The notes under the pieces: generated by a model
Told to the model about the DNA's origin: nothing
The model's input: the letters and a program-made list of their open reading frames with translations, nothing else
Databases searched by the model: none
Program-made: the position numbers and the translations under genes
Shown: in pieces, positions 13,398 to 29,004 of the stretch
How positions within the stretch are numbered: position 1 is the first letter of the stretch
Layout: each line of letters opens with the position of its first letter
NCBI GenBank assembly: GCA_036155355.1
Contig: JAYZVT010000244.1
Coordinates: forward strand, 1 to 29,004
Length of the DNA stretch: 29,004 nt
DNA from: Pseudomonadota bacterium
GTDB taxonomy: Bacteria; Pseudomonadota; Alphaproteobacteria; Rhizobiales; Methyloligellaceae
Direction: 5' to 3'

Positions 13398-13451
13398 GGA
13401 ATTCTTTGGCGTAGCCCTTCGTGGTTGCGCCCGCCATGTGGCAGGTCGGAC

Positions 13452-16319
13452 ATGAAGCCGAAGGTCGAAATTTCCGCGCCGGTCGCCGACGAGATCAAGA
13501 CTTCGACCTGCTACATGTGCGCCTGCCGCTGCGGCATCAAGGTGTATCTGAAGGACGGCCAGGTCCGCTACATCGAAGGCAACCGCGACCATCCGGTGAA
13601 CCGGGGCGTGCTCTGCGGAAAGGGCTCGGCCGGCATTATGCAGCAATATTCCCCGGCGCGGCTGCGGGCGCCGCTGCTGCGCGTGGGCGAGCGGGGCAAG
13701 GGCGAGTTCAAGGAAATCTCCTGGGATGAGGCGCTCGGCCTTGCCACGCAGTGGCTTGGCGACGTGCGCGACTCCGATCCCAAGAAACTCGCCTTCTTCA
13801 CCGGGCGCGACCAGTCGCAGTCGTTGACCGGATGGTGGGCGATCCAGTTCGGGACGCCCAACTACGCCGCGCACGGCGGCTTCTGCTCGGTGAACATGGC
13901 CGCGGCGGGTCTCTACACCTTCGGCGGCTCCTTCTGGGAATTCGGCGAGCCTGACTGGGCGCATACGCGATACTTCATGCTGTTCGGCGTGGCTGAGGAC
14001 CACGCCTCCAATCCGATCAAGATGGGGATCGGCAAGCTCAAGGCTCGTGGCGCCAAGTTTGTTTCGATCAACCCGGTGCGGACAGGATATTCGGCCATTG
14101 CCGACGAATGGGTGGGAATCAAGCCGGGTACCGACGGGCTGTTCGTCGCCTCTCTGATCCGTGAAATGCTGAAAGCAGACAGGGTCGATGCTGAATACCT
14201 AGTGCGCTACACCAACGCGCCCTGGCTGGTGATTGACGACAAGGGCAGCGCCGATCACGGACTGTTCGCGCGCGACAGGAAGGGCAACCCGCTCGCCTTC
14301 GACAAGAAGACCGGGAAACTCACCAACGCCATGCTGCCCGACATCGCGCCGGCGATGATCGGTGACTTCAAGCTGAAGGACGGCCGCAAGGCCGTGCCGG
14401 CATTCCAGCTGCTGGCCAGGCGATTCCTGGACGTCCGTTACGCGCCCGAAAGAGTTGAAAAGGAAACCGGCGTCCCGGCGGACACCATCCGTCGGATCGC
14501 AGCGGAATTGGCCGAGGCGGCATTCGAGCAGGAGGTGGTCCTGGACGTTCCCTGGACCGACTGGGCGGGGCGCAAACATGACAAGATGATCGGCAGGCCG
14601 ATCTCCATGCATGCCATGCGCGGCATCTCGGCTCATTCCAACGGATTCCATACCTGCCGGCTGATCCATGTGTTGCAGATACTGCTTGGCAGCATCGATT
14701 GCCCGGGCGGCTTCCGCTACAAGCCGCCCTATCCCAAGCAGACGCCGCCTTGGCTCAAGCCTTCGGGCAAGCCGCGCGACGTCGCGCCTTCCGAGCCGCT
14801 GGGCGGCCCGCATCTGGGCTTCCCTCTCGGACCGGACGACCTGTTGGTGGACGAGAACGGCACGCCGGGACGCATCGACAAGGCGTTCAGCTGGGATGCG
14901 CCGCTCGCCGCGCACGGGCTGATGCACATGGTCATCACCAACGCCGGCAACCGGGACCCATACCCCATCGACGTGCTGTTCCTCTACATGGCCAACATGA
15001 GCTGGAACTCGACCATGAATGTGCCGGAGGTGCTCGGCCATCTGACGGCGCGGGACGAGAAGACCGGCGACTACAAGATTCCGAAGATCATCTATTCCGA
15101 CGCCTACTATTCCGAGATGGTCGCCTATGCCGACCTGATCCTGCCGGACACCACCTATCTGGAGCGGTGGGACTGCATCTCCCTGCTCGACCGGCCGGTA
15201 TCGGAAGCGGACGGGCCGGCGGACTCGATCCGCCAGCCCGTTATCAAACCCGACCGCGACGTGCGCGCCTTCCAGGAGGTGCTCATCGACCTTGGCGCGC
15301 GGTTGAAGCTGCCGGGATTCGTCACCGACAAGGGCAAGCCGAAATATCCCGGCGGCTATCCCGATTACATCGTCAACCATGAGCGCAAGCCGGGCATCGG
15401 TCCGCTGGCGGGCTGGCGGGGACAGAAGGGCGAAGCCTACGGAGTGGGCGCGCCATATACAAAGCAGCTTCAGCGCTACATTGAAAACGGCTGCTTCCAC
15501 TTCCACAAGCTGAAGCCGTCGATGCACTACTACAAGCACGCCAACCGGGAGTATCTCGACTGGGCACTGCAGATGGGTTATCGCGGCACGGCGACACCGA
15601 TCGTCTTCCAGCTCTACAGCGAGCCGATGCAGCATTTCCACCTGGCCGCCGAAGGACACGGTCCAGTCGTGCCGCCGAAGCATCATCGCCGGCGCATCGC
15701 CACGTTTTTCGATCCCCTTCCCTTCTGGTACGCACCCTTCGAGGGGTCGCTGCTCGACGACGGCGACTACCCCTTCGCCGCCGTAACGCAGCGGCCGATG
15801 GCCATGTATCACTCCTGGGGCTCGCAAAACGCCTGGCTGCGTCAGATCCACGGCGCCAACCGGCTGTATATCAACGCCGCGCGGGCGCGGGAGATGGACA
15901 TCGCCGACGACGACTGGGTGTGGATCATCGGCTACAAGGGCCGCGTGAAGGCGCAGGTGAAACTGCAGGAGGGGGTCAATCCGGACACGGTGTGGACCTG
16001 GAACGCCATCGGCAAGCGCTCCGGTGCATGGTCGCTCGACAAGGATGCGCCGGAGGCGACGCGCGGCTTCCTGCTCAATCACCTGATCTCCGAACTGCTG
16101 CCGGTGCGCCCCGGCGGATACCGCTATTCGAATTCCGACCCGGTGACGGGACAGGCGGCCTGGTACGATCTGCGCGTCCGCATCGAGAAGGCCGAGGCCG
16201 ACCCGGCCCGCACGGAGCCCTTCTACGAACCGATCGATACGCCGTGGAAGCGCGACCTGCCGGACACGTTGCGCTTCGGTGAGCAATTCCGTCGTGACCG
16301 GTGGAGACGCGGCTCATGA
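13452..16319 (+). CDS. soeA: Molybdopterin oxidoreductase catalytic subunit, SoeA-type sulfite dehydrogenase
   Basis: TCYMCACRCG...LCGKG Fe-S motif with no Tat signal; HGGFCSVNMAA; MHAMRGISAHSNGF; YHSWGSQNAWLRQ; followed by DmsB- and DmsC-like genes. Confidence 0.85.
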   Translation: MKPKVEISAPVADEIKTSTCYMCACRCGIKVYLKDGQVRYIEGNRDHPVNRGVLCGKGSAGIMQQYSPARLRAPLLRVGERGKGEFKEISWDEALGLATQWLGDVRDSDPKKLAFFTGRDQSQSLTGWWAIQFGTPNYAAHGGFCSVNMAAAGLYTFGGSFWEFGEPDWAHTRYFMLFGVAEDHASNPIKMGIGKLKARGAKFVSINPVRTGYSAIADEWVGIKPGTDGLFVASLIREMLKADRVDAEYLVRYTNAPWLVIDDKGSADHGLFARDRKGNPLAFDKKTGKLTNAMLPDIAPAMIGDFKLKDGRKAVPAFQLLARRFLDVRYAPERVEKETGVPADTIRRIAAELAEAAFEQEVVLDVPWTDWAGRKHDKMIGRPISMHAMRGISAHSNGFHTCRLIHVLQILLGSIDCPGGFRYKPPYPKQTPPWLKPSGKPRDVAPSEPLGGPHLGFPLGPDDLLVDENGTPGRIDKAFSWDAPLAAHGLMHMVITNAGNRDPYPIDVLFLYMANMSWNSTMNVPEVLGHLTARDEKTGDYKIPKIIYSDAYYSEMVAYADLILPDTTYLERWDCISLLDRPVSEADGPADSIRQPVIKPDRDVRAFQEVLIDLGARLKLPGFVTDKGKPKYPGGYPDYIVNHERKPGIGPLAGWRGQKGEAYGVGAPYTKQLQRYIENGCFHFHKLKPSMHYYKHANREYLDWALQMGYRGTATPIVFQLYSEPMQHFHLAAEGHGPVVPPKHHRRRIATFFDPLPFWYAPFEGSLLDDGDYPFAAVTQRPMAMYHSWGSQNAWLRQIHGANRLYINAARAREMDIADDDWVWIIGYKGRVKAQVKLQEGVNPDTVWTWNAIGKRSGAWSLDKDAPEATRGFLLNHLISELLPVRPGGYRYSNSDPVTGQAAWYDLRVRIEKAEADPARTEPFYEPIDTPWKRDLPDTLRFGEQFRRDRWRRGS

Positions 16320-17065
16320 CCACGCTGCCGCAAACGACGGCGAAGAAGCTCGGTCTGGTTATCGACCTGGATACCTGCGTCGGCTGCCAGGCCTGCGCGA
16401 CAAGCTGCAAGGAGTGGAACACCGGCGGATATTCCGCTCCCCTCACCGACCAGAACCCCTATGGCGCGGATCAGCATGGCGCCTGGCTCAACCGCATTCA
16501 CAGTTTCGAGGCCGGCGAAGGCGATGCCAGCCGCACTGTGCATTTCCCGCGCTCCTGCCTGCATTGCGAGGAGCCCGACTGCGTGACCGTCTGCCCCACA
16601 GGAGCCTCCTACAAGCGCGAGGAGGACGGTATCGTCCTCGTCAACCCGGACACCTGCATCGGCTGCAAGCTGTGTTCATGGGCCTGCCCCTATGGTGCGC
16701 GCGAATATGACTACGGTCACGGCGTGATGAAGAAATGCACGCTCTGCGTCGATCGCATCTACAACGACAACCTGCTGCCCGAGGACCGCGTTCCCGCCTG
16801 CGTGCGCGCCTGTCCGACGGGCGCGCGGCATTTCGGCGACCTTGGCGATCCGTCGAGCGAGGTTTCCCAGCTGGTGCGCCGGCGCGGCGGCTTCGACCTG
16901 CTGCCGGAGATGGGATACAAGCCGGTCAACAAGTACCTGCCGCCACGCGAGCGGCGCGATGGGCGCGCCGCGAATGCTGCATCCACTGCATTGCCGGAGT
17001 CGGGCGGCGGCGCCTCCAGGCTCGACAAGCTGTTCGGCTGGGCCGACCGGCTGCTGTCGCGCTGA
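16316..17065 (+). CDS. soeB: 4Fe-4S ferredoxin subunit (SoeB/DmsB-like)
   Basis: ATGA overlap with soeA. CVGCQAC, CLHCEEPDCVTVCP, CIGCKLCSWACP, KCTLC...CVRACP. Confidence 0.87.
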   Translation: MTTLPQTTAKKLGLVIDLDTCVGCQACATSCKEWNTGGYSAPLTDQNPYGADQHGAWLNRIHSFEAGEGDASRTVHFPRSCLHCEEPDCVTVCPTGASYKREEDGIVLVNPDTCIGCKLCSWACPYGAREYDYGHGVMKKCTLCVDRIYNDNLLPEDRVPACVRACPTGARHFGDLGDPSSEVSQLVRRRGGFDLLPEMGYKPVNKYLPPRERRDGRAANAASTALPESGGGASRLDKLFGWADRLLSR

Positions 17066-17076
17066 AGGGGGCGGCG

Positions 17077-18018
17077 ATGCATCCCGCCTATTCGGTCATC
17101 TTCTTCACCACCGCGTCCGGCGCGGGCTACGGACTGCTGTCGCTGCTCCTCCTGTTTGCGCTGCTTGGGCTGGTCTCGCCGGACGTCTGGCTCGGGCTGA
17201 CCGGGTTCGGCCTCGCCTTTGTGCTGATCGTGGCGGGGCTGCTGTCCTCGACCGCACATCTGGGACGCCCCGAGCGGGCGTGGCGGGCCTTCTCGCAGTG
17301 GCGCAGCTCGTGGCTGTCGCGCGAGGGCGTGATGGCGGTTCTGACTTTCGCACCCGCCGGCATCGCCGCACTTGGCTGGGTCCTGCTTGGAGAGGTTTCG
17401 GGCGCATTGGCCTGGGCGGGCTGGGCGGCGATCCTGTGCGCGGGCATGACCGTCTATTGCACGGGCATGATCTATGCGTCGCTCAAGACGATCCGCCAGT
17501 GGCACCATCCCCTCGTCGCACTCAACTATGTGGTGCTGGCGCTGGCGACAGGTGCAGTACTTTTAGACACATTGCTGACTATGACCGGCCAGCCGTCGAG
17601 ACAAGCGACGTGGACCGCTGTTGCGGCACTTGCCATCGCGCTCGCGCTCAAACTCGCCTACTGGGCCAGCATCGACAGCGCCAACAAGAGCTACACCGTC
17701 GGACGCGCCACGGGCCTCGGGCGCTTCGGCAAGGTGCAGCCGCTTGACCCGCCGCATACGGAACCCAACTTCGTCATGCGGGAGATGGGCTACCGTGTCG
17801 GCCGCAAGCACGCGGCAAGGCTGCGTCTGATCGCGGCCCTGCTGGGATTTATTCTGCCCGCCGTGCTACTCGCGATCGCGGAGCAGGCGGGCGGCGCGCC
17901 ATGGCTCAACTCAATCGCAGTGGCGTCGGCCGCCGCGGGCGTAGTCGTGGAGCGCTGGCTGTTCTTTGCGGAAGCGGAACATGTGGTGATGCTCTATTAC
18001 GGCGCGGGAGCCGCCTGA
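17077..18018 (+). CDS. soeC: Membrane anchor subunit (SoeC/DmsC-like)
   Basis: MHPAYSVIFFTTASGAGYG, HLGRPERAWRAFSQWRSSWLSREG, ERWLFFAEAEHVV; multiple hydrophobic segments. Confidence 0.87.
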   Translation: MHPAYSVIFFTTASGAGYGLLSLLLLFALLGLVSPDVWLGLTGFGLAFVLIVAGLLSSTAHLGRPERAWRAFSQWRSSWLSREGVMAVLTFAPAGIAALGWVLLGEVSGALAWAGWAAILCAGMTVYCTGMIYASLKTIRQWHHPLVALNYVVLALATGAVLLDTLLTMTGQPSRQATWTAVAALAIALALKLAYWASIDSANKSYTVGRATGLGRFGKVQPLDPPHTEPNFVMREMGYRVGRKHAARLRLIAALLGFILPAVLLAIAEQAGGAPWLNSIAVASAAAGVVVERWLFFAEAEHVVMLYYGAGAA

Positions 18019-18030
18019 CGGGAACTGCCT

Positions 18031-19929
18031 TCAGTTGCCCTGCGCCTGCTTGCGGCTGAGCTGCGGATTGCCGCCATTCTGCGTCACCGGCTGCTGCAAC
18101 AGCCCGAAGGACTTGCGCGCGGCAAGTCGCACCATATGCGCCGTGTAGGCATAGAGCTCTACCGCATCGACGGCGTTGTCGGCGTTGCCGATCGGGGCCA
18201 GGTCGGCGCGGCCGGCAAGGCCCTCAATGAGGTAGCGGGTGAACAGGCCGATACCGTATCGCGGGTCGTCGATCGTGCGCTGATCGCCCGACGCGGCGGC
18301 CATAACGGTCAGGCCCGGCGAAGGACTGCGCGGAAGTACTGATGTCCGCATCGCGGGAAGATTGGGCGGATAGACGATATCGCTGATGTCGCGCCCGAAC
18401 TCGGCCTCAAGCAGGACGAGCGAAGACTTCATACCGAGCGCGGCGACGCGGTCATAAAGCGTGGACAGGGGATAGCCGGTCTGCGCCGCCCGATGGGGAA
18501 GCGTGTCCACTGGCAGGAGAAAACGCTCCGACTGGTCCGGCAGGGTCGCGCCGTGACCGGCGAAATAGATGAACAGTCTCTCCGCGCCACGCCGCTTCAA
18601 CGCGGCGGCCAGCTCACCAGCACCGCCATCGCCAAACACTCGCCTGAAATCGTCGAGCGAAGCGTCCCGCAGATCGATGACGTTCTCGGCCTTTATTCCC
18701 AGATGCTCGGTGAGCAGTGCGTAAAAGGCGCCCGCATTGTTGTGTGCGCTGCCGTTGACCTCGATGCCGCCGCGATAGGACTTGTTGCCTATAACGACTG
18801 CGAAGTCCTTTTCGTGCCCCAGTCCATTGGAGAAGGGCCGGTAGAGTTCCCGCACCCGGGTGAAGGCAGCGCGACCGGCGGCGCCTGGCTGCGACCACCG
18901 CGGCAGCTGGGTGGGCGGACGCGAGCACAAGGACACGTTGGTCTCGCGTTCAATGAGCAAAATGTCGTCGAGGGGAAGATGCGAGTTTATCTGCAGGCAG
19001 GACTTGCACCACTCGACGACGCGATTGGCTTCATATGAAGCGATCTCCTTCGGCCCCAGCTCACGCGGCACCGGCAGGCAGTTGTCATGGCAGGCCTTGA
19101 GTTGCGGGCGCGCCCCATAGGCGCCGGTGACCAATTCCATGAGGTCGGGCGGCAAGCACTGCGCTTCGGCGGCGGCAAACAGGCGGGGCTGGGCCGGGGT
19201 CGAACCCTCGCCAGTCACAGGATCAGCCGGGCGGGCGGAGGCGACGTAGGTACCCAGCTCCCGCTGGGTCTCCGGGCAGAGATCGAAGAGACGCAGCTGT
19301 GTCTTCAGCTCGAGCGCGCCCTTGGTCGAAGCGGCCACATTGTAGTCCTTCTTGAAAAACCAGAAGGCGGTCCAGAAGGCCGATGTCGGGGTCGCGGCCG
19401 GCTCTCCCTTGAGATAGCCGGCCTCGATCATGCAGCGCTGGATCAGCGCCATGTCGGAGGTCAGCAGCGGCTCTTCGCCGGGCTTGCGGTCTATTCCGGC
19501 GTGCAACTGGGGATGGATGCACTGATCGCCCTGGGGTACATGCCCGGCCCGGCAGACGCACTTCTGCTCGGCCGGCGACCAGCGCTTGGTCTCGTCGCAG
19601 GCTTGCGCCAACTGCACGCACTTGTCATCGACAAGACCGTGGCCCTCGGCCACGCAGATGCACTTCTTCAATCCGTGCGAGTAGACCATCGGCGCCTCGC
19701 AAAGAGGCTGGGGCGCCGGCGCGGCGACCGGGGGACGCCTGAAGCGTCTGACCTGCGGCTCGGGCTGCTGATAGGGACTGAAGAAAGGCGAATAGTAATA
19801 TTGCTGCGCCAGTTGCAGGCGCTGCGGCGAGAACCGTGGTTCAGCTTTGGCGGGCAAGGCCGCAAGTGTCAGTTGGGCAGCGAGGACGGCTACAAACCCA
19901 CAAAGTGCGGACCTCATTCCCACACGCAT
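18031..19929 (-). CDS. Exported protein: Cys-rich repeats + peptidoglycan-binding-like segment + caspase-like (C14) domain lacking the catalytic Cys
   Basis: Signal peptide; two C-x12-C-x-C-x10/11-C units; LIQRCMIEAGYL...FWTAFWFFKKDY resembles PG_binding_1; FAVVIGNKSY...IYFAGHG (His kept) ...VLLEAEF (Glu where D-[AS]-C has Cys). Confidence 0.75.
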   Translation of the reverse strand: MRVGMRSALCGFVAVLAAQLTLAALPAKAEPRFSPQRLQLAQQYYYSPFFSPYQQPEPQVRRFRRPPVAAPAPQPLCEAPMVYSHGLKKCICVAEGHGLVDDKCVQLAQACDETKRWSPAEQKCVCRAGHVPQGDQCIHPQLHAGIDRKPGEEPLLTSDMALIQRCMIEAGYLKGEPAATPTSAFWTAFWFFKKDYNVAASTKGALELKTQLRLFDLCPETQRELGTYVASARPADPVTGEGSTPAQPRLFAAAEAQCLPPDLMELVTGAYGARPQLKACHDNCLPVPRELGPKEIASYEANRVVEWCKSCLQINSHLPLDDILLIERETNVSLCSRPPTQLPRWSQPGAAGRAAFTRVRELYRPFSNGLGHEKDFAVVIGNKSYRGGIEVNGSAHNNAGAFYALLTEHLGIKAENVIDLRDASLDDFRRVFGDGGAGELAAALKRRGAERLFIYFAGHGATLPDQSERFLLPVDTLPHRAAQTGYPLSTLYDRVAALGMKSSLVLLEAEFGRDISDIVYPPNLPAMRTSVLPRSPSPGLTVMAAASGDQRTIDDPRYGIGLFTRYLIEGLAGRADLAPIGNADNAVDAVELYAYTAHMVRLAARKSFGLLQQPVTQNGGNPQLSRKQAQGN

Positions 19930-20084
19930 CTTTCACTCCCCGACGCAACTTTCGGGCCTTCCTGCTGGACCCGTTACCAACTGCTGGACCGGACGCTAGC
20001 CTCCGGAGTCCGCAATCCTACCCGTCATGCAGCGCGAGAGGAACCGTTCGTTCTCAAACGCCGTTAATTTCACCACGCTGTCTG

Positions 20085-21020
20085 TCATTTCACCAACTGG
20101 TACTCGACGCGCCGGTCGAAGGCGTAGCGCTCTTCCTCGGAATATTTCGCCGGATCATCGGGCACGAAGGGCGCACGTTCGCCCAGGCCGACGACCTCGA
20201 TGTTGCCCTTGTACCCGTTGGCAAGCAGATAGCCCTTCACCGCTTCCGCGCGCGCCAGGGACAGGCCGAGATTATAGCCGTCGTTCCCGCGCGGGTCGGT
20301 ATGACCGATCAGCTTCACATGTGCGACTGAGTGATCGCCCAGATAGGCGAGGATGTCCGCGACCGCCTTCTCGCCATCGGGAGTCAGTACGGCGGCGTCA
20401 TATTCGAACCGCACAGGGACCGGCACCGACTCGGCGGTGAAATTGCGGAAGTTCGGCGAGCCGGCGCCGCTGACCTTGCCGCGGAATCGGCGGGTAGCGA
20501 CGTAGACCGGGGCCAGCGCGCGGGCCTGGTAGGCGAGCTTGGCCACACGCTCCTCATCCTCCTTCGCCGGCGGCTTGGGGTTGAGCGCCGTATCACGCAT
20601 GTCATCGAGCGCGGATTCGTAGGCCCTGACCGCCTCGCCATACTGCTTGGCCCCATATTGGGCATCGCCCAGCGCAACCATCACCTGCCAGGGTTGGCCG
20701 TAGGACGCCGCCTGTTTCAATTGATCGAGCGCAATCGTACCGCCGCCACCTGCATCGGCCTGCATCTTCTTCAGGCTGGCAAGCGCGAGCACGCGTCCGA
20801 CGCGGGCGCGATACTGTCCGTCGCAGCTGGTATCGGCCAGCATCCGGGAATGCAGATCGGGGAACCGGGCCAAATCGGCGGCGCCTATGGCCTCGCGCAG
20901 GTCCTTGTCCAGGACCGTACAATCGGCAAGAGCCGCCCCTGGAATAAGGACGGCTCCTGCAAGAATGATGGGGAGGGCGCGGAGCGCCCTCCCCTTTGTC
21001 GTTGGCGTCGAGGCACTCAT
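20085..21020 (-). CDS. Exported OmpA-family peptidoglycan-binding protein with N-terminal TPR-like helical domain
   Basis: Signal peptide; ALGDAQYGAKQYGEAVRAYESAL (TPR-like); VRFEYDAAVL...IGHTDPRGNDGYNLGLSLARAEAVK...DRRVE (OmpA C-terminal). Confidence 0.85.
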   Translation of the reverse strand: MSASTPTTKGRALRALPIILAGAVLIPGAALADCTVLDKDLREAIGAADLARFPDLHSRMLADTSCDGQYRARVGRVLALASLKKMQADAGGGGTIALDQLKQAASYGQPWQVMVALGDAQYGAKQYGEAVRAYESALDDMRDTALNPKPPAKEDEERVAKLAYQARALAPVYVATRRFRGKVSGAGSPNFRNFTAESVPVPVRFEYDAAVLTPDGEKAVADILAYLGDHSVAHVKLIGHTDPRGNDGYNLGLSLARAEAVKGYLLANGYKGNIEVVGLGERAPFVPDDPAKYSEEERYAFDRRVEYQLVK

Positions 21021-23539
21021 TTCACCTCGACCGTGATGGCTGTCCGCGACAGGACCGTCGGCTTCGGCGCCGCCTTGCCGTCCTTGATCGCGGCCTTGCC
21101 TTCGGCGACCTTCTCCTTGCCCTCGACCACGATCTGACGGGTGAGGAACTCGCGATACTGGCCGACGTCAGTGAAAGCGCGGGTCTTGAAGTCGTGCTTG
21201 ATGCCGTCAACGAGCTTGCTGTCGGCATTGCACACGGCGATCACCGTCTCCTTGCCCTTGTCCTTCAGGCGCAGCTGGAAGGGTGCCTTGGCACCTGGCA
21301 ACTTCACCTCCTTGCCAGCAGCGATGAGATTGTCCTGCTGGAACTTGTTGGGGAAGATGACGGTGCCGACGCCCTTGCCATCAACGTTGATGAGCGTCAG
21401 GTTGCAGTTCTCCTTCGACGTAATGCTGAGCTGGAGCAGTTCCCCGACGTCGTACACGGACTTGTCGGAGAGCAGAGCCAGGTCGAACTCGGCCTGCTTG
21501 CCCTTGGGCTTGTCGTCGCCCACCTTGGCCACGTCAGCCTTCGCGGCATCGCCGCCGGTGTCCACGCGAAGGTCGTCAGAGACCTTCTCGATGACCTCGG
21601 CGAAGCGCGCCTCGAACTGCTCGCGCGGCAGCACACCCTGCTCGAGACGACGCTTGGTCCGGAAGGACTCGCCGCCATCGGCCGCGAGACCCTCGGCAAG
21701 CTGCTCGCTGGAGATGCCGTACTCGGCCGCCGCAACGCGCAGGTCAAGCGCCTTCTCATACTGCTTGGAGAGGAAGTTGATGCTCTCCACGCCCGACTGC
21801 TGGGAGTCGAGGTCCGGATCGAGACCAGCACGCAGCATGGCCGTGCGGAAGCGGTTGTAGTCGTCGTCGAGGAGCTTGTTCATCTCCGCGACTTCGGGAT
21901 ACAGCGCCTTCACCTTTTCACGGGTGTCGCGATCGAAGGTACGGTCCGTAAACACATGCTTGCGGATTTCGTCCGTCGCACGCCGGATGCCCTGGTTGTG
22001 GCAGCCGAAGCAGGAGATGCCGTTGGTGACGGCACGGTCGAGCTGACTGTCATCGAGGACGATCTCGGTCGGACCCTTCTCCAGGCGCTTGCCGTCAGCG
22101 GTGTTCAGGTAATAGCCCTGGAAACCGTTAGGCAGGCTGAAAATGGTCTCGCCACCGTCTTCCTTGAAGGCGTTCGGGCCCTTGGGACCGAGCGGGCGCA
22201 CGAACAGGCTCTGCTCGGGCCTGTCACCCTTGAAGTCGTAGGAGGTCCAGAAATAGCCGGTGTTGATCGAGTGACGCTCGATCAGACGGTTATGCTTGGA
22301 CACGCCCGACTTCTGGAAGCCCGCACGGGCGGCGCGGAACTTCTCGATGTTCTCGGTCACGTCGACGCCAAAGTCCTTCTGAAGCTGCTGGAAGTTGTCC
22401 GGGAGCTTCAGGAGATCGTAATAGAGCGGCGGCCGCGACGCGGTGAAGGCAAACCAGTCGCCACGGATCCAGGATATGGGCGTGTCGGTGATCTGCTTGA
22501 CCGTGTCATAGGTCGTCGTATCGGGACGGTTGGCATAGGGGTAGGACTTGATGATCGTGTCCCAGTCCTTGGCCTCCCACTTCAGGTCGTCCAGATTGAA
22601 GGCAATGATGGTATTGTCCTTGTCGATCGTCCGCATCTTTAGGACGTCCGACTGGCGGCTGAGACTGTTCAGCAGCTTCACCACGCCCTGACGCAGACGC
22701 ACCAGGTTCTCCTCCTTCTCGCAAACGTTGTAGAAGTGAGAGAGCGTGATGTAGCGCATGCCCTTGCGGCGATGGTCTTGTTGGGCATTCAGGTCGGCCG
22801 CGATCGACTCGACGATGTCGGCGCTGGCGATCGGCTTGCGGTCGCACTTGGGCGGCGCAAGCGAAACGATCCAGTCCGAAATGGCCTTAACCTCTTCGAC
22901 CGTCGGCTCATCTCCGCCGGAGAATTCCTGGCGGACGTCATACGGCATGGTGCCGTCGAGCAATGTCTTGAAGAGGCGCGAGCCCTCCGGCAACCCCGCG
23001 ACCACGAGGTTCGCATCCTTGGCGACCTCGTCGAGTTGCAGGACGTTGCCGAAATTCTTGGCCGGCTTTTCGCGCTCGAGACGGCCGATCTGATGGCAGC
23101 GGGCGCAATGCTTGTCGAGCGCCTTGAATGCCTTCAGTGCGACCGGATCCGTGGGCTCCGCGATGGCCGCGGCCTGAACGGGCGCGGGAGCTGGAGCGGG
23201 AGCCGGTGCCGGTTCAGGCGCCTGGGCCTGGACAGGCTCAGGGGCCGGCGCGGGAGCCGGTGCCTGGACCTGTGCTGGCGCTGGCTCTGGAGCGGGCGCC
23301 TGCACCTGGGCCGGAGCAGGCTCGGGAGCCTGCGCCTGTGCGGGCGCAGCTTCGGCCGGCTTGGCCTCCTCGGGCTTTGCTCCCGCTTCGGGAGCCGTGC
23401 CCTGGACCGTCTGGATGGCTTCCGCCGCCCTGTCGGCCGGTTGTTTGCCTTCGGCGGCATATGCGCCGATAACGCCCACGACGCCTGCGACGGCGAGGGC
23501 GAGTACGGATATCGATGTCAGTCCTATGCGCGATCTCAT
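21017..23539 (-). CDS. Large exported c-type cytochrome: Pro/Ala linker, planctomycete-type cytochrome c domain, unknown central domain with second CxxCH, C-terminal DUF4384-like domain
   Basis: GGAGG RBS; signal/anchor peptide; CARCH (23093-23107) followed by G.PEGSRL...GTMP...EVKAISDWI; CFGCH (21998-22012); DKSVYDVGELLQLSITSKENCNLTLINVDGKGVGTVIFPN. Confidence 0.75.
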   Translation of the reverse strand: MRSRIGLTSISVLALAVAGVVGVIGAYAAEGKQPADRAAEAIQTVQGTAPEAGAKPEEAKPAEAAPAQAQAPEPAPAQVQAPAPEPAPAQVQAPAPAPAPEPVQAQAPEPAPAPAPAPAPVQAAAIAEPTDPVALKAFKALDKHCARCHQIGRLEREKPAKNFGNVLQLDEVAKDANLVVAGLPEGSRLFKTLLDGTMPYDVRQEFSGGDEPTVEEVKAISDWIVSLAPPKCDRKPIASADIVESIAADLNAQQDHRRKGMRYITLSHFYNVCEKEENLVRLRQGVVKLLNSLSRQSDVLKMRTIDKDNTIIAFNLDDLKWEAKDWDTIIKSYPYANRPDTTTYDTVKQITDTPISWIRGDWFAFTASRPPLYYDLLKLPDNFQQLQKDFGVDVTENIEKFRAARAGFQKSGVSKHNRLIERHSINTGYFWTSYDFKGDRPEQSLFVRPLGPKGPNAFKEDGGETIFSLPNGFQGYYLNTADGKRLEKGPTEIVLDDSQLDRAVTNGISCFGCHNQGIRRATDEIRKHVFTDRTFDRDTREKVKALYPEVAEMNKLLDDDYNRFRTAMLRAGLDPDLDSQQSGVESINFLSKQYEKALDLRVAAAEYGISSEQLAEGLAADGGESFRTKRRLEQGVLPREQFEARFAEVIEKVSDDLRVDTGGDAAKADVAKVGDDKPKGKQAEFDLALLSDKSVYDVGELLQLSITSKENCNLTLINVDGKGVGTVIFPNKFQQDNLIAAGKEVKLPGAKAPFQLRLKDKGKETVIAVCNADSKLVDGIKHDFKTRAFTDVGQYREFLTRQIVVEGKEKVAEGKAAIKDGKAAPKPTVLSRTAITVEVK
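23174..23359 (-). repeat. Intragenic low-complexity (A)PEPAPAQVQAP-type repeat encoding a Pro/Ala/Gln linker
   Basis: Translation PAEAAPAQAQAPEPAPAQVQAPAPEPAPAQVQAPAPAPAPEPVQAQAPEPAPAPAPAPAPVQ. Confidence 0.85.
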
Positions 23540-23683
23540 TTTAACCTCCGCTGGCGTGGAGTTGGCGTTCTCGCACAGCCCTAGTGCCCGCCGGCTGAAT
23601 GGCGCATGAACGGCCCTGCTCCGCTCACGTTCATCTTGTTCCGGTCCGGTGTCTGGAAATGGCAGGCTCCTCAGATAATCCCG

Positions 23684-25204
23684 CTATTTAACGATTTCAT
23701 AGCGCAGTGTCGCAACCGACCAACTGGCGAATTCCGTGTTCTTGGCGGCATCATTGGCATGCAATGGTGTCCCGAGCGCGGCGGCCAGCTTGGGCAGAAA
23801 CGATTCGACCGCTTCCTGGCGGGGTATTACCTCGATGGAGCGCGTCTTCACTTCCTTGCCGAAGTCCACCTGGTCGCGAGTGACGATGGCGACGATATAG
23901 CCCGAACTGGGGGCCGTGGCGTTGAACTTGAGGCCATAATAGTCGTCCGGCACCGATAATGGCGAGCCGGCGAGCAGACGGCCGGTATTCGCGGTCTCGT
24001 ATTTACGCGAGAACTGGTTGGGGTAGAGCTGGACGAGCTTTCCGTCGTCGGACAGGTCGAGCAGGATCAGATAACCCTCATGCGGGCTTGTCACCCGGAA
24101 GCGGATATCTCGCGTGCCGACATGCACCGGTGACGGAGGGTGAAGTTCGACAACTACGCCATGCACATTGCCCTTGGCGAGGAAGTCTGTCACCTGTCCG
24201 ATATCAAGCTTCGCCGGCGGCGCATCCGGCGCGATGGCGGCCTTCTCCTTGCCAAGAGCAGACGCCGCATGTGCGCCGGCAGGGTCCAGCTTCGGCGTCA
24301 AACCCATCTCGCAGCGGTCCGCATGGGACCTGCAATATGCGGCGGAGCCGGTGCTGACGTAGCTCAGAAGCTCGGCATTGGAGATGACGCCATTGCCGTT
24401 CTTGTCGGCTTTGGCCTCGCCGAGGGCTTCGACATAGAGTTTGGTGAAGACGCCATGAGCCTTGCCACCCGCGGCATCCACAAGCGCAACCTGGCTGCCG
24501 GCGACAGCCGACCATACCGACAGGCTGCCGCTGGCCAGAGTCGTCTCGACGAAACCGCCCTCTTCCGCCTTCTGGGCCGCGGCGGCAGCCTCGACCACGA
24601 TTGAACGCGTCGCGGTAGCTATCTGCGGCGTGCGCGCGGCGACGACGATCTTGCCGCCGGACTTGGCATCGCGCGTGACCGCGCCTGAATGTCCTGAATC
24701 TATTACGACAGTGACGTTGCGACCCTCGAGCACTTTGAGTGCCTCGGAGAACTCGTCATCACTCAGCAGGCCGGAAATCTCCGGCTTCGGCCCCGAGCCT
24801 TCCACCTTTGAATCGAACAAGGCCAACGCCTCGTCGAGGCCGTCGGTCTCGTCGCCATTGGTATCCTTCTGGAAGTAACCCATGCCCGCATAATAGAAGT
24901 AGGCACGCTCGCCGGGCTTGGTTCCCTTGCCAAGCCAGTCCGCTACGTTGGCCAGCACTGCCGCCTTGGTCGCCTCGGCGTCCTTCAGCACCTTTATGTC
25001 ACCGGCGGCAAAGCCGAGTTTGGACGTGAGCAACGCCTTGATCGCCTCGACGTCGTTGATTGCCGAAGGCATTTCTAGGCGCAGCTTCTCGTCGGCGTAT
25101 GCATCCACGCCAACAAGCAGCGCCCTGTCGGCGGCGGCGCATGCGGCTGGAGAGGCGAGATGAATGGCGAGACCTGCGACGGGTATGAGGGCGAGCAGGC
25201 GCAT
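23684..25204 (-). CDS. Exported caspase-family (C14) pseudo-protease + DUF4384-like domain
   Basis: Signal peptide; RALLVGVDAY...NDVEAIKALL...ATKAAV; FYYAGMG and VIDSGHSG where AGHG and DSCHSG are expected; C-terminal FRVTSPHEGYLILLDLSDDGKLVQLYPN. Confidence 0.82.
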   Translation of the reverse strand: MRLLALIPVAGLAIHLASPAACAAADRALLVGVDAYADEKLRLEMPSAINDVEAIKALLTSKLGFAAGDIKVLKDAEATKAAVLANVADWLGKGTKPGERAYFYYAGMGYFQKDTNGDETDGLDEALALFDSKVEGSGPKPEISGLLSDDEFSEALKVLEGRNVTVVIDSGHSGAVTRDAKSGGKIVVAARTPQIATATRSIVVEAAAAAQKAEEGGFVETTLASGSLSVWSAVAGSQVALVDAAGGKAHGVFTKLYVEALGEAKADKNGNGVISNAELLSYVSTGSAAYCRSHADRCEMGLTPKLDPAGAHAASALGKEKAAIAPDAPPAKLDIGQVTDFLAKGNVHGVVVELHPPSPVHVGTRDIRFRVTSPHEGYLILLDLSDDGKLVQLYPNQFSRKYETANTGRLLAGSPLSVPDDYYGLKFNATAPSSGYIVAIVTRDQVDFGKEVKTRSIEVIPRQEAVESFLPKLAAALGTPLHANDAAKNTEFASWSVATLRYEIVK

Positions 25205-25205
25205 G

Positions 25206-26789
25206 TCAGCCTCCCGACCCGGTATAGATGTCGAGCACGCCCACCTGCACGTCTCCCGACGCGAGTACGGCTTCGAGCACCGTGCGCAGCGGTCCCGTGT
25301 CCTTTGCCGTCTTCATGGCGGCAAGCACCGCGTGAAGGTCGCTCAGGATGGTCTTGGAAAAGATGGCGACGAGGTGTTCCGCACCATAGGGCGGGTTCGC
25401 GACCTTGAAGCTCTCCACGAAGGCACCGCCGCGCCAGTCTTTCTCCGCCTCACCCTTTCTCTTTGGATCGGGAATGAAGAATTCCACGCGGCCGTCCGGC
25501 GGCATGTTGAACATGGTCAGATGCGGATAGGCCGCACCGGCGATCTTCACATCCACAGTCTCGCCGATGTTGTATCGCTTGTTGCCGCTGGGCAGCGAAA
25601 CGTCCACCGCGTCGGACGCGGCCCTGTGCTTGAGCAGCTTGAGCGCGGCCCACTTGGTGGCCACGGGCACAACATTGCCGGCATTGACGCCGAGCGCCAC
25701 GACGCCGCCCACCTTGTGCTCGATTGTGCCGGATGCCGCATACCAGATGAGATCCGCCTTCGACTTGTCCGCTACCACCTCCACGAAGGGGACATCTCCG
25801 AGCGGTCCGGCGGTGCCGCCGTCGATGGCGATGCGCAGCGGTTCGGAGGTGTTATCGGGCTTTTCCGGCTTTGCGCTGCGGACATTGAACAGTCCGAATG
25901 AGCGCGCGCGTAGTGGCGCGACCTGGGGCGTCTGCTGGCTTTCCACCTGGGCGTGAACGGCCGGCACGACGAAGCCCAGAAGCTCGACCTGCGTCACCAC
26001 GCCATCGCCGTCTCGATCGGCGCGACCCTCGAGCGCGCGCGCCAGCGCCCAGCTCAATGCGCCGCGCTTCTGCCCGTCGATGGTGACTTCGGGCGTGAGC
26101 TGGTCTTCCGACGTGGCGCCGACGAAAGTGATGTTCTGGAAATCGTCTTCCTTCAACTTGCCTGCCTCGGGCGGAGGAAATTTCAGCAGGTCATCAGTTA
26201 TCTCGCCGAATTTGCCGTTGCGGAAGCGAACCGTCTCGGCGCGGGCGCTACGGTTCATGGTGCCGGAATGGCAGGAATCGGCAGCAAAGACGACACGGAC
26301 ATTCTTCTTGTCCGCCTTCTGCAGCCACTCGGCAATTTCATCGTCGATGATACGCTCCCGCGTACCCTTGCCCTGCGTGGCATATCCGGCGAGCAGGAAA
26401 TTCTCGTTCTTCCCATCGGCCTCGTCGTGACGGCCGGGCGGCTCGGGCTCCTGGCTGCCATGACCGGCAAAGCTGAAGAAGATCGTGTCGCCATCCTGCG
26501 CAACACCGAGCAATTCGTGATAAGCGTTCTCGATATTCGCCTTGGTAGCCTCATGATTGAGGAACTTGCGGATCTGGACCGCGCCTGCGGTCTTCAGCGC
26601 TTTGGCAATATCCTCCGCGTCGTGGACTGCTCCCTCCAGGTCGTTGCGTTCGCCGATATAGTCGTCGATGCCGACGACGAGGCCGAAGATAGCGGGTTCG
26701 CGCGCTTGCAGGCTGGTGGGACCTTCAATGCAGAGCAAGGCGGCAGCGAAGGCCGCGAGCCAGGCGCACCCGGTCCTTGTCCTGCTCAT
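25206..26789 (-). CDS. Exported caspase-family (C14; meta/orthocaspase-like) protease with intact dyad + DUF4384-like domain
   Basis: Signal peptide; GLVVGIDDY..LEGAVHDAE; FSFAGHGSQ (His 26460-26462); ADSCHSG (Cys 26271-26273); RGALSWALARALEGRADRDGDG; KRYNIGETV...HLTMFNMPPDGRVEFFIP. Confidence 0.87.
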   Translation of the reverse strand: MSRTRTGCAWLAAFAAALLCIEGPTSLQAREPAIFGLVVGIDDYIGERNDLEGAVHDAEDIAKALKTAGAVQIRKFLNHEATKANIENAYHELLGVAQDGDTIFFSFAGHGSQEPEPPGRHDEADGKNENFLLAGYATQGKGTRERIIDDEIAEWLQKADKKNVRVVFAADSCHSGTMNRSARAETVRFRNGKFGEITDDLLKFPPPEAGKLKEDDFQNITFVGATSEDQLTPEVTIDGQKRGALSWALARALEGRADRDGDGVVTQVELLGFVVPAVHAQVESQQTPQVAPLRARSFGLFNVRSAKPEKPDNTSEPLRIAIDGGTAGPLGDVPFVEVVADKSKADLIWYAASGTIEHKVGGVVALGVNAGNVVPVATKWAALKLLKHRAASDAVDVSLPSGNKRYNIGETVDVKIAGAAYPHLTMFNMPPDGRVEFFIPDPKRKGEAEKDWRGGAFVESFKVANPPYGAEHLVAIFSKTILSDLHAVLAAMKTAKDTGPLRTVLEAVLASGDVQVGVLDIYTGSGG

Positions 26790-27736
26790 TTTCCGGTTTC
26801 CTTGGAAGGGCGGCTGCTGGCGATGGCGGGTATCGACTTGAGATAGGCAGCGATGGCCGCACGATCCTCCGCGGTAAGCTTTGCGGTGTTGGTTTGCACG
26901 GCGGCCATTGGCCCGCCAAAGGCGTCGAATGACGGCGTCAGGCCGCTCTCAAGCGAATAGGCGATCTCGTCCTCGCTCCAGGCGCCAATGCCGGTCTTGT
27001 CGGGCGTGATATTGGGGATGTAGCCAACGCCTTCAGGAGAAGGCCCACCAGACAGCTTCGCGGCAGTGATAATGCCGCCGAAAATATTCCGGGGCGAATG
27101 GCATTCGCCGCAATGGCCGGGACCTTCAACGAGATAGCCGCCGCGATTGATCTTGTCGCTGGCGCTTGCAATCGGCTGATAGGCTTGCCCATCGAGGAAC
27201 AACAACTTCCACAGGCCGAGTCCGCGCCGCAGGCGGAACGGTAGCGCGAGGTCATGTGCCGGAGCCTCAACGTCCGAGGCCGGCAGAGTGTCCAAGAATG
27301 CCTTGAGGTCCAGCAGGTCCGTCGGCTTCATGCGCTGATAGGACGTGTAGGGAAACGCGGGGTAGTAGTGACTGCCATCCGGCGAGACACCGCGCGCCAT
27401 GGCGTTGACAAATTCCAGCGGCGTCCAGCCGCCGATGCCATGCGTCCTGTCGGACGAGATATTGGGTGCGTAGAAAGTGCCGAACGGCGTTTTCAGGCAG
27501 CGGCCACCGGCAAGCAGCTTCGGATCGCCATATTTCGGATCATCACACTTGGACGAGGCCGGAGCGGCATGGCACGAGGCGCAACCGCCCGCATAGAACA
27601 TGTATTCGCCGTTCTTGACGTCAGGCGTGTGACTGGGAAGCGCCGTCGCGGCAATGGTCCTGGGCGCCGTCAGGACATAGAAGACGACTGCGCCCAGGAT
27701 TCCGAGGATGACGACCGCCCACACAAGGCGTCGCAT
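26786..27736 (-). CDS. Membrane-anchored diheme cytochrome c
   Basis: GGAGGG RBS; N-terminal hydrophobic helix; GGCASCH and GHCGECH; TPFGTFYAPNISSD; HYYPAFPYTSY; PNITPD. Confidence 0.9.
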   Translation of the reverse strand: MRRLVWAVVILGILGAVVFYVLTAPRTIAATALPSHTPDVKNGEYMFYAGGCASCHAAPASSKCDDPKYGDPKLLAGGRCLKTPFGTFYAPNISSDRTHGIGGWTPLEFVNAMARGVSPDGSHYYPAFPYTSYQRMKPTDLLDLKAFLDTLPASDVEAPAHDLALPFRLRRGLGLWKLLFLDGQAYQPIASASDKINRGGYLVEGPGHCGECHSPRNIFGGIITAAKLSGGPSPEGVGYIPNITPDKTGIGAWSEDEIAYSLESGLTPSFDAFGGPMAAVQTNTAKLTAEDRAAIAAYLKSIPAIASSRPSKETGK

Positions 27737-27802
27737 GCTGCCCTCCATAAACAAATCTCGTGCCGCGCGACCCCGGATCGCGCGGACGCAACATGCTTGC
27801 GA

Positions 27803-28249
27803 CTACTTCTTCACGCGATAGGCTTCGTGGCAGCTCTTGCAGTTCTTCACAAGCTCGCCGAACGCAGCCTTGTAGGCGCCAATACCCTGCTTTGCCGCTT
27901 CTTCGCCCTGGGCCGCGGCAACCTTCAACTTCTCAGCCGCAGCCACGAAGCCCGCCATGTCTTCCCAGATCTTGGGCGATGCTTCGGTTTCGCCACCGGT
28001 CTTGGACGTGTCGGGGAACAGCTTGACATACTGGTCGGGAACCGCAGCGATGGTCTTCATCGCCTCCGCCGCCTTGGCCTGGTCGAAATCGACCTTACCC
28101 GAAACCATTTCGGAAGCGGCCTTGGTCGATGCACCAACCTGCTTCATCAACTCCTTGCGCGCCTTGATCGGATCGTCGGCCGCGACTGCCGCCAAAGCGC
28201 CGAAAGCCACCGCTCCCACCAGAATGGCGGACCGTACCAGAATATTCAT
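27803..28249 (-). CDS. Cytochrome c'/c556 (class II four-helix-bundle cytochrome)
   Basis: Start ATG 28249 with GGGAG RBS; signal peptide; DPIKARKELM; SPKIWEDMAGF; C-terminal CKSCHEAYR. Confidence 0.9.
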   Translation of the reverse strand: MNILVRSAILVGAVAFGALAAVAADDPIKARKELMKQVGASTKAASEMVSGKVDFDQAKAAEAMKTIAAVPDQYVKLFPDTSKTGGETEASPKIWEDMAGFVAAAEKLKVAAAQGEEAAKQGIGAYKAAFGELVKNCKSCHEAYRVKK

Positions 28250-28356
28250 GCGTTTCTCCCAAGAGGCGTGATGGACGTATGCTGAACGGAATTCCACAAT
28301 TTTATTAGATCGCCACGATAACCGAGAAATCAAGCCCGGTAGCCATTTTTCTGGCA

Positions 28357-28375
28357 ATTGTTTGTGACAATCACA
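28357..28375. promoter_or_regulatory. Nested palindromes in the divergent intergenic region; candidate operator
   Basis: ATTGT-N5-ACAAT (28357-28371) overlapping TGTGA-N3-TCACA (28363-28375). Confidence 0.3.
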
Positions 28376-28476
28376 TGGCCTGACGCTCCAATCGGGTCCT
28401 GGGAGGCACGGTTGACGCGGGAATACGGGCGTTCCAGTTTCCTCTGTCCGCCGCCGTGGATCTGGAGCCTTCCCGC

Positions 28477-29004
28477 ATGAAACTCGCCATTCTTGACGAT
28501 TATCAGAACGCGGCGCTGGACTCAGCGGACTGGACGACGCTCGCCGACAAGGTCAATTGCCGCGTCTTCGACAAGCATCTGGGCTTCTCGGAGGACAAGA
28601 TAGCCAAGACACTGGCCCCATACGAAATAATTGTTGCAATGCGGGAGCGGACGCCTTTTCCCGCCTCCCTGTTGTCCAGGCTGCCAAAGCTGAAATTGCT
28701 CGTGACCACGGGCATGCGCAATCTCGCCATCGACATGGAAGCGGCGCGAGCAGGCGGGATCGACGTCTGCGGCACGAGCATGCTGCCCTACCCGGCCGCC
28801 GAGCATGCCATGGCGCTGATCCTCGACCTGTTCAAGAAGATCTCGCTGGAGAACCACGCCATGCACAAGGGCAAGTGGCAGACCGTGGTTGGCGAGGGAC
28901 TAAACGGCAAGACGCTGGGTATCGTCGGACTTGGCAAGCTTGGTGAGCGTGTCGCCCGCCTCGGCCGGGCGCTGGAGATGGACGTGATAGCCTGGAGCCA
29001 GAAC
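28477..29004 (+). CDS. D-isomer-specific 2-hydroxyacid dehydrogenase, truncated by the window end
   Basis: Not in the ORF track because it has no stop. My translation: MKLAILDDYQ...IVAMRERTPFPASLLSRLPKLKLLVTTGMRNLAID...GKTLGIVGLGKLG (Rossmann motif); GGAG RBS. Confidence 0.9.
   Translation, partial: MKLAILDDYQNAALDSADWTTLADKVNCRVFDKHLGFSEDKIAKTLAPYEIIVAMRERTPFPASLLSRLPKLKLLVTTGMRNLAIDMEAARAGGIDVCGTSMLPYPAAEHAMALILDLFKKISLENHAMHKGKWQTVVGEGLNGKTLGIVGLGKLGERVARLGRALEMDVIAWSQN

Follow-up and report, generated by a model that had tools for sequence, protein, structure and literature searches.

A catalytically dead metacaspase-like paralogue encoded in tandem with its intact relative in a heme-protein gene cluster of Alphaproteobacteria

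Why should a bacterium keep, directly beside the gene of a caspase-like protease with an intact active site, a second gene whose product has lost both catalytic residues? This question is raised by contig JAYZVT010000244.1 of a Methyloligellaceae metagenome-assembled genome (MAG) of the Rhizobiales (GenBank assembly GCA_036155355.1), from which a stretch of 29,004 nucleotides, hereafter the window, was analysed. Two neighbouring genes on its minus strand, here called A and B, code for homologous proteins of peptidase family C14, and the catalytic His-Cys dyad is kept in A (His110/Cys173) and absent from B (Met108/Gly171). The initial annotation of this locus, prepared from the nucleotide sequence alone, had interpreted the pair as a periplasmic heterodimer switch of protease and pseudo-protease, comparable with cFLIP and caspase-8. 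The comparative analysis reported here revealed that B belongs to an old and conserved dead-caspase family and is probably a non-catalytic partner of A, and that an obligate switch of the cFLIP type is unlikely.

The coordinates of A and B, the four dyad motifs and the two codon positions of B given in the initial annotation proved exact to the base in the open reading frame (ORF) listing and by codon mapping. In A, the AGHG motif supplies His110 (CAT, 26460-26462) and the DSCHSG motif supplies Cys173 (TGC, 26271-26273), and the equivalent motifs of B read AGMG, with Met108 (ATG, 24881-24883), and DSGHSG, with Gly171 (GGA, 24692-24694). The two proteins shared 30% identity over 285 residues by BLASTP (E 5e-18), an alignment that placed Met on His and Gly on Cys. 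The junction between the genes is very tight: a single base (25205) lies between the stop codon of A (TGA, 25206-25208) and the start codon of B (ATG, 25202-25204), and a Shine-Dalgarno-like GGGAGG (25210-25215) lies 5 nt ahead of the B start codon, so that translational coupling is likely. Moreover, both N-termini resembled Sec signal peptides with Ala-x-Ala sites, as judged by eye, in agreement with the secreted, periplasmic location first proposed, and the linkers RSARAETVR and RTPQIATATR, earlier singled out as possible processing sites, were found in A and B, respectively.

The caspase-haemoglobinase fold of family C14 was recognised in B by means of both sequence profiles and a structure model. 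The Pfam family PF00656 (Peptidase_C14) matched A with an E value of 9.7e-17 and B with 2.8e-11, and the B profile aligned with the metacaspase Yca1 over residues 23-260 (E 2.2e-32). The AlphaFold2 model of B, built on an alignment of 26 sequences, reached a predicted local distance difference test (pLDDT) of 85.9 and a predicted template modelling score (pTM) of 0.86, with lower confidence at residues 181-190, and its best Foldseek matches in the PDB were Arabidopsis metacaspase 9 (AtMC9), the Geobacter protein GSU0716 and the yeast and Candida metacaspases (E 1e-11 to 1e-7). Given that residues 226-260 of B fell on the Yca1 segment where the p10 region begins in the profile alignment, pseudo-metacaspase may be a better label for B than pseudo-orthocaspase. 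This affinity bears on the premise, taken over in the initial annotation, that caspase-fold proteases are activated by dimerisation. The premise is valid for caspases and paracaspases; A and B resemble metacaspases, and metacaspases are monomers in which two extra strands fill the caspase dimer interface (PMC4357240, PMC9622860, PMC5756287), which weakens it for the present pair.

Apart from the dyad, much of the active-site surroundings is preserved in B. The residues D51, D169, D114, E119, D121, G122, E125, D131 and D149 and a Cys pair, C291 and C298, are invariant in 26 B orthologues; D51 and D169, as well as the equally invariant D57 and D171 of A, align with the corresponding residues of Yca1. 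When site residues were taken from the published structures of TbMCA2 and CgMCA-I (PMC4357240, PMC9622860) and transferred via the Yca1 alignment alone, D51 and D169 of B corresponded to Asp95 and Asp211, which form part of the acidic S1 pocket of TbMCA2; in metacaspases, this pocket binds Arg or Lys. The retention of these pocket residues in a protein that would not cut suggests binding without cleavage. The metacaspase Ca2+ site comprises three Asp ligands in CgMCA-I, D198, D214 and D245 (PMC9622860), and by the same route D124 and D149/D150 of B match two of these aspartates. At the third ligand position, seven residues after the nucleophile, both proteins have an invariant Arg (R178 of B, R180 of A), and the site is therefore non-canonical in each of them. 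A role of B as a Ca2+-sensing subunit had been considered, since its DGDExDGxDE motif is better conserved than that of A, and was dropped in view of this Arg. Similarly, a Ser nucleophile was considered for the His/Ser variants of B and is not relevant to the Met/Gly protein of the window.

In B, the metacaspase-like domain includes an EF-hand-like loop and is followed by a DUF4384 domain (Table 1). Across the 26 orthologues, the loop residues D267, N269, G272 and E278 show little or no variation, and the corresponding loop of A spans residues 258-270. Taken alone, A matched DUF4384 weakly (E 0.2); matches were found in 11 of 18 A orthologues (best E 1.3e-6), and a profile-profile alignment placed A residues 386-483 on the DUF4384 region of B (343-447). 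The claim that the two proteins have the same architecture is thus borne out in the succession of C14 and DUF4384, and is qualified by the weak DUF4384 match of A alone and by an insert of about 80 extra residues in A (306-385) between the caspase-like and DUF4384-like domains. DUF4384, which is also common to the 840-residue protein encoded downstream of B (P840), is a promiscuous extracytoplasmic module: the nearest Atlas structures were fusions to trypsin, caspase, kinase, S-layer/PEGA and CsgG/LPP20 proteins, the kinase partners being of the Ser/Thr type. An NCBIfam search gave weak, sub-threshold matches to an EACC1-associated caspase model and no specific family.

Relatives within the family were gathered by whole-genome searches and fetched loci, and a wider set by a scan of species-representative genomes. 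In a maximum-likelihood tree, A and B formed separate clades with 100% support each. Among the sampled loci, all 20 A orthologues have the His/Cys dyad, and Cys is missing from 15 of the 30 B sequences, 14 of which form a single clade (support 99), the other being that of Ensifer adhaerens Lc04. In Rhizobium, Sinorhizobium, Shinella, Roseibium and Azospirillum, His and Cys are present in A as well as in B. A and B derive from an old tandem duplication whose ancestral state was two intact proteases, and one loss of Cys occurred at the base of a large clade formed by the Methyloligellaceae, a Hyphomicrobiaceae MAG and Bauldia. Among the Methyloligellaceae orthologues of B, Gly or Ser takes the place of Cys, and M, L, H, Y or F stands at the His site.

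A broader sample of the B family, 116 clusters obtained from a search of 5.8 billion protein clusters, contained 31 clusters that keep Cys and 83 without it, the other two being unscored (one truncated protein and one gap at the Cys site). Written as the residues at the His and Cys sites, the dyads were HC in 29 clusters, LG in 21, HG in 12, QG in 11, QS in 10, NG in eight and YS in six; HS, LS and PS were found in three clusters each, YG and QC in two each, and MG (this window only), QD, AG and KS in one each. The tree of these clusters revealed at least two independent losses of Cys, in a clade of 72 and in the Labrys lineage, where the change proceeded stepwise from HC to QC and then QS. 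The losses amount to at least three when Ensifer Lc04 is counted, all of them in B and none in A. Because many Cys-less B proteins still have His, the nucleophile was lost first, and the His site drifted afterwards (H, L, Q, N, Y, M, P, A, K). This history also settles an argument of the initial annotation, according to which a sequencing error was unlikely as both codon changes needed more than one substitution. The conclusion holds, because every orthologue in the clade of the window's B is without Cys, and the codon-distance argument itself is moot, because the nucleophile was lost long ago (the orthologues have Ser or Gly) and A does not represent the ancestral codons. Two strains that bear a single species name also differ at this site, Ensifer adhaerens Lc04 (L046) carrying DAGYSS and M78 (L043) carrying DACHSG in B, with ORFs that are otherwise intact.

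In spite of the lost active site, B is under strong purifying selection, with ratios of nonsynonymous to synonymous substitution rates (dN/dS) of 0.04-0.15. Between the Methyloligellaceae genomes G007 and G014, dN/dS was 0.040 for B, 0.064 for A and 0.046 for the diheme cytochrome of the cluster, and pairs within genus g2 gave 0.11-0.15 for B. Moreover, conservation extends over the entire protein, with 88 invariant columns in an alignment of 11 B orthologues whose identity to the window's B is 40-57%. The view of B as an intact and conserved pseudo-protease is thereby upheld: the loss is clade-wide and not specific to a strain, and selection is not relaxed. In the B orthologues of genera g2 and g9 (L024-L030), an insertion of about 40 residues rich in Lys and Arg was observed just before the strand of the former His (columns 138-178 of alignment A1); it is present in the lineage that has no A and also in G009, which keeps A.

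The pair is widespread and its arrangement is stable. The full seven-gene cluster was found in three other Methyloligellaceae genera (G007 and G014; G005; G009). Together with genes for a heme/DUF4384 protein and an OmpA-like protein, the A-B pair, adjacent and overlapping, also occurs in Rhizobium, Sinorhizobium, Ensifer, Shinella, Roseibium, Azospirillum, Neomegalonema, Bauldia and several MAGs. A 1-nt gap or an overlap of 1-4 nt separates or joins A and B in the window, G007, G014, G005, G009, the Hyphomicrobiaceae MAG and Bauldia, and further in Labrys miyagiensis, four metagenomic contigs, Rhizobiaceae, Roseibium and others. For example, contigs with the NG, LG, YG and HC variants of B and the complete Labrys miyagiensis genome (QS) carry genes for cytochrome c, A, B, a DUF4384 protein and OmpA, and in all of them the A and B genes overlap. 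The tandem first noticed in the window is accordingly an adjacent and translationally coupled pair in nearly all genomes examined. In the Rhizobiaceae (L039, L041-L044, L046), a single product of about 1075-1138 amino acids combines the diheme cytochrome c with the P840-type protein, and the gene order is altered to heme protein, OmpA, A and B. An extra gene of 782 amino acids with no Pfam match, which has no counterpart in the window, lies between the P840-type and OmpA-like genes of Labrys miyagiensis (L122, 12176-14524). Gene fusions also involve the B-type caspase itself: it is joined to an OmpA domain (OmpA-C14-DUF4384; P0113; a Binatia MAG) and to an N-terminal trypsin domain (trypsin-C14-DUF4384; P0096, L036 and L038). 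These fusions support a putative peptidoglycan-tethered assembly in which a B-type domain stands beside another protease, and do not reveal in what manner the two would act together.

In the context of these data, B is probably, though by no means surely, a partner that binds or regulates without catalysis, within a wall-anchored assembly of protease and heme proteins in the periplasm. It would no longer cut and would still bind a basic peptide, a partner or Ca2+, acting beside protease A as an adaptor or as a recognition or regulatory subunit, and both proteins would reside in a periplasmic assembly tethered to peptidoglycan. A putative contact between A and B would more likely involve DUF4384 or other surfaces than an interface of the caspase dimer type. 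Since either gene can be lost, the partnership would be modulatory and not obligate, and a looser association of this sort is plausible. A more far-reaching proposal, which is conceivable and to be held only tentatively, is that A, B, P840, the diheme cytochrome and the OmpA-like protein constitute a peptidoglycan-tethered periplasmic protease machine of Alphaproteobacteria with a heme (redox, nitric oxide or O2) signal input, in which B would be the receptor or adaptor paralogue, one that gave up catalysis repeatedly. If true, this machine would represent a bacterial equivalent of the signalling pairs of caspase and pseudo-caspase, and would have arisen independently of those in animals.

Several observations weigh against such a partnership. 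In genus g2 (six genomes sampled; L025-L030) and in the MAG SZUA-148 (L034), the operon consists of cytochrome c', diheme cytochrome c, B and C632 (a third caspase-like protein of the cluster) only, C632 being in g2 the only partner of B besides the cytochromes. A was sought in five g2 genomes (95-99% complete) and no match was found anywhere in them; in G018, the sole Pfam C14 match was B itself and no other C14 protein was detected. The reverse situation was found in G001, a genome of the window's own genus (92% complete; L120, C221), where the diheme cytochrome, A and P840 lie on one contig and B is cleanly deleted. This locus is collinear with window positions 27796-25205 and 23615-21017 with a nucleotide identity of 75-80%, and between these flanks about 112 nt stand in place of the entire B gene (25204-23616), a presence/absence difference between two species of one genus. 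A further genome, G003 (L121), has the diheme cytochrome, P840 and C632 and neither A nor B. The cluster is thus modular, and the diheme cytochrome is the only gene in every Methyloligellaceae variant seen. Because each of A and B persists without the other, neither is essential for its neighbour, and the dead paralogue does not always occur with an active partner (five g2 genomes and SZUA-148; the reverse in G001). In addition, metacaspase-type Ca2+ control of A and B is not predicted, the S1-pocket and Ca2+-site mapping comes from sequence alignment, and no RNA run holding the stretch is among the listed sequencing runs; the stretch was found in one seawater metagenome DNA run only.

The rival explanations fare differently in the light of the same evidence. 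The switch initially put forward, in which B would pair with A at a caspase-type sheet edge and allosterically turn it on or off, draws on the tandem, translationally coupled genes, on the maintenance of the pairing across several orders and on the fact that only B ever degenerates, as expected if one active site per heteromer suffices. Such an obligate heterodimer is nevertheless unlikely, since the closest solved relatives of the pair are metacaspases (Yca1, E 2e-32; AtMC9; GSU0716), which are monomers with an occluded interface (PMC4357240, PMC9622860), and since B occurs without A in g2 and SZUA-148 and A without B in G001. Alternatively, B could be independent of A and serve the cytochrome/heme part of the cluster or the envelope as a scaffold or binding protein, its adjacency being a mere legacy of duplication. 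The g2 operon, which holds no active caspase, and the diheme cytochrome common to all Methyloligellaceae variants fit this idea, which also agrees with the published opinion that pseudo-orthocaspases are probably not regulators of their active relatives (PMC6426788). However, outside the g2-type clade B always lies directly downstream of A and is coupled to it, including in two lineages with independent inactivation, and B-type domains are also fused to a second protease, trypsin; we consider full independence rather doubtful.

B might also be a substrate or decoy of A, either processed by it, as TbMCA4 is by TbMCA3 (cited in PMC6426788), or soaking up its substrates through the retained pocket. 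The trypanosomal precedent, the retained S1-type Asp residues, and the conserved R178 in the loop after the dead nucleophile, together with the lower model confidence at residues 181-190, speak for this possibility; the genomes that have no A or no B argue against such dependence, and it seems to us quite improbable. Decay of the gene, or an artefact of assembly or sequencing, could be suspected from the Met/Gly combination, present in this protein only among the 116 clusters, and from the single sequencing run that holds the stretch. This last suspicion is refuted by the comparative data and deserves hardly any credence, considering the intact ORF, the orthologues in more than 80 clusters without Cys, the low dN/dS and the many invariant columns. 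A non-catalytic and modulatory partnership with A therefore stays our preferred reading of B.

The genes around A and B, whose coordinates are collected in Table 1, form a tightly packed cluster on the minus strand in the order cytochrome c', diheme cytochrome c, A, B, P840, OmpA-like protein and C632. The last of these proteins has an AGHG motif, its nucleophile site reads E-A-E-F-G, and its N-terminal half is rich in Cys; none of its orthologues has Cys at the nucleophile site, and that of G005 also has Arg in place of His. A PDB sequence search with P840 gave no match, and a promoter and terminator scan of positions 17800-28600 yielded counts no higher than in shuffled sequence, which makes it uninformative on the operon boundaries. 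Beside the cluster, the plus strand of the window (13425-18018) carries ORFs of 964 and 254 amino acids and a DmsC/NrfD-like membrane protein (16735-18018); these may represent a molybdopterin/FeS oxidoreductase set, the DmsC/NrfD-like protein being the one checked with Pfam. The source MAG is 71% complete, with 2.5 Mb and at least 15 Peptidase_C14 loci. Thirteen further C14 loci lie on its other contigs, most of them classical and of a different type (E in the 1e-40 range), and this C14 expansion is large for so small a genome.

Table 1. Features of the A-B locus and its gene cluster (positions in the window)
Feature	Position	Strand	Basis
Cytochrome c' (class II), first gene of cluster	27803-28357	-	PF01322, E 1.9e-30
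Membrane-anchored diheme cytochrome c; stop overlaps start of A (ATGA)	26786-27754	-	ORF, Pfam
Gene A, secreted metacaspase-like C14 protease, 527 aa	25206-26789	-	ORF, Pfam, codons
A/B junction, 1-nt spacer (25205) and GGGAGG motif within the end of A	25205-25215	-	Sequence read directly
Gene B, secreted catalytically dead paralogue of A, 506 aa	23684-25204	-	ORF, Pfam, BLASTP, codons
B caspase/metacaspase-like domain, about residues 27-317, with dead dyad codons and retained Asp51 and Asp169	24254-25126	-	Pfam, codons, invariant columns, profile alignment
B EF-hand-like loop DKNGNGVISNAEL, residues 267-279	24368-24406	-	EF-hand_1, E 0.00097
B DUF4384 domain, residues 366-444	23873-24109	-	Pfam, E 3.1e-9
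P840, 840-aa secreted protein, two CxxCH motifs, C-terminal DUF4384	21017-23539	-	ORF, Pfam
OmpA-like peptidoglycan-binding protein	20085-21020	-	Pfam, NCBIfam search
C632, third caspase-like protein, 632 aa, His kept, no Cys	18031-19929	-	Genome C14 search, orthologue comparison

The significance of this locus lies in one large dead-caspase family that can be traced to a tandem pair of two active enzymes, in which the same partner was inactivated each time. This origin makes the question of its function testable, as do its setting, a conserved periplasmic operon that also encodes heme proteins and a peptidoglycan anchor, and its occurrence in cultured bacteria. Cultured carriers exist for both states, with a dead B in Labrys species and a live B in Ensifer, Sinorhizobium, Rhizobium and Shinella, and Ensifer adhaerens Lc04 and M78 offer a natural pair for asking whether catalysis by B matters.

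Among known systems, the type I metacaspases (Yca1, 4F6O; CgMCA-I, 7QP1; TbMCA2, 4AFP) and GSU0716 (3BIJ) are the best profile and fold matches of A and B, with which the metacaspases share the acidic S1-pocket residues and an acidic segment after the His loop. Unlike them, A and B are secreted, have no N-terminal prodomain and carry DUF4384; they also have an invariant Arg in place of the third Ca2+-ligand Asp, and B is devoid of the dyad. Pairs of active and inactive paralogues have been described in eukaryotes: in cFLIP(L)/caspase-8, an inactive caspase-family paralogue is the heterodimer partner of the active one, and in TbMCA4/TbMCA3, a pseudopeptidase is processed and accompanied by an active paralogue (both cited in PMC6426788). 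Those systems are eukaryotic and cytosolic, and either A or B can be absent in relatives; moreover, cFLIP uses the caspase dimer interface that metacaspase topology blocks. In bacteria, the CspB/CspA/CspC proteins of Clostridioides difficile are likewise encoded by an operon that combines one active protease with dead paralogues acting as signal receptors or regulators (PMC7200643, PMC12880746), but they have a subtilisin fold, serve spore germination and not the Gram-negative periplasm, and are not homologous to A or B.

The closest published relatives are the pseudo-orthocaspases, of which 582 were catalogued in Alphaproteobacteria, 96% of them in Rhizobiales, with YS, YA, FS, QC and HA dyads (Klemencic et al. 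2019, PMC6426788). In that survey, dead caspase homologues made up nearly a fifth of the alphaproteobacterial orthocaspases, a link to photosynthesis was proposed and the regulation of active relatives was thought unlikely (PMC6426788). Like these proteins, B is prokaryotic and has a p20-type C14 domain in which the His-Cys dyad is substituted; the group is further marked by the absence of a p10 domain, and in B the alignment with Yca1 reaches the start of the p10 part. The YS, QS and QC members of the B family fit the catalogue, and the trypsin-p20-DUF4384 architecture described in that survey (PMC6426788) belongs to the same family. On the other hand, the text of that study contains no gene-neighbourhood analysis, tandem origin or repeated one-sided inactivation (PMC6426788). 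The context of B consists of periplasmic cytochromes, OmpA and an active paralogue. To our knowledge, neither the seawater Methyloligellaceae MAG nor Labrys is a phototroph, which together with this cytochrome/OmpA context argues against the published link to photosynthesis. A full-text literature search found no description of the A-B pairing, its operon or the repeated one-sided inactivation. Consequently, pseudo-caspases of this kind were already known, and what appears to be new is their tandem origin from two active enzymes, the repeated inactivation of one side only and the cytochrome/OmpA context in which the pair is kept.

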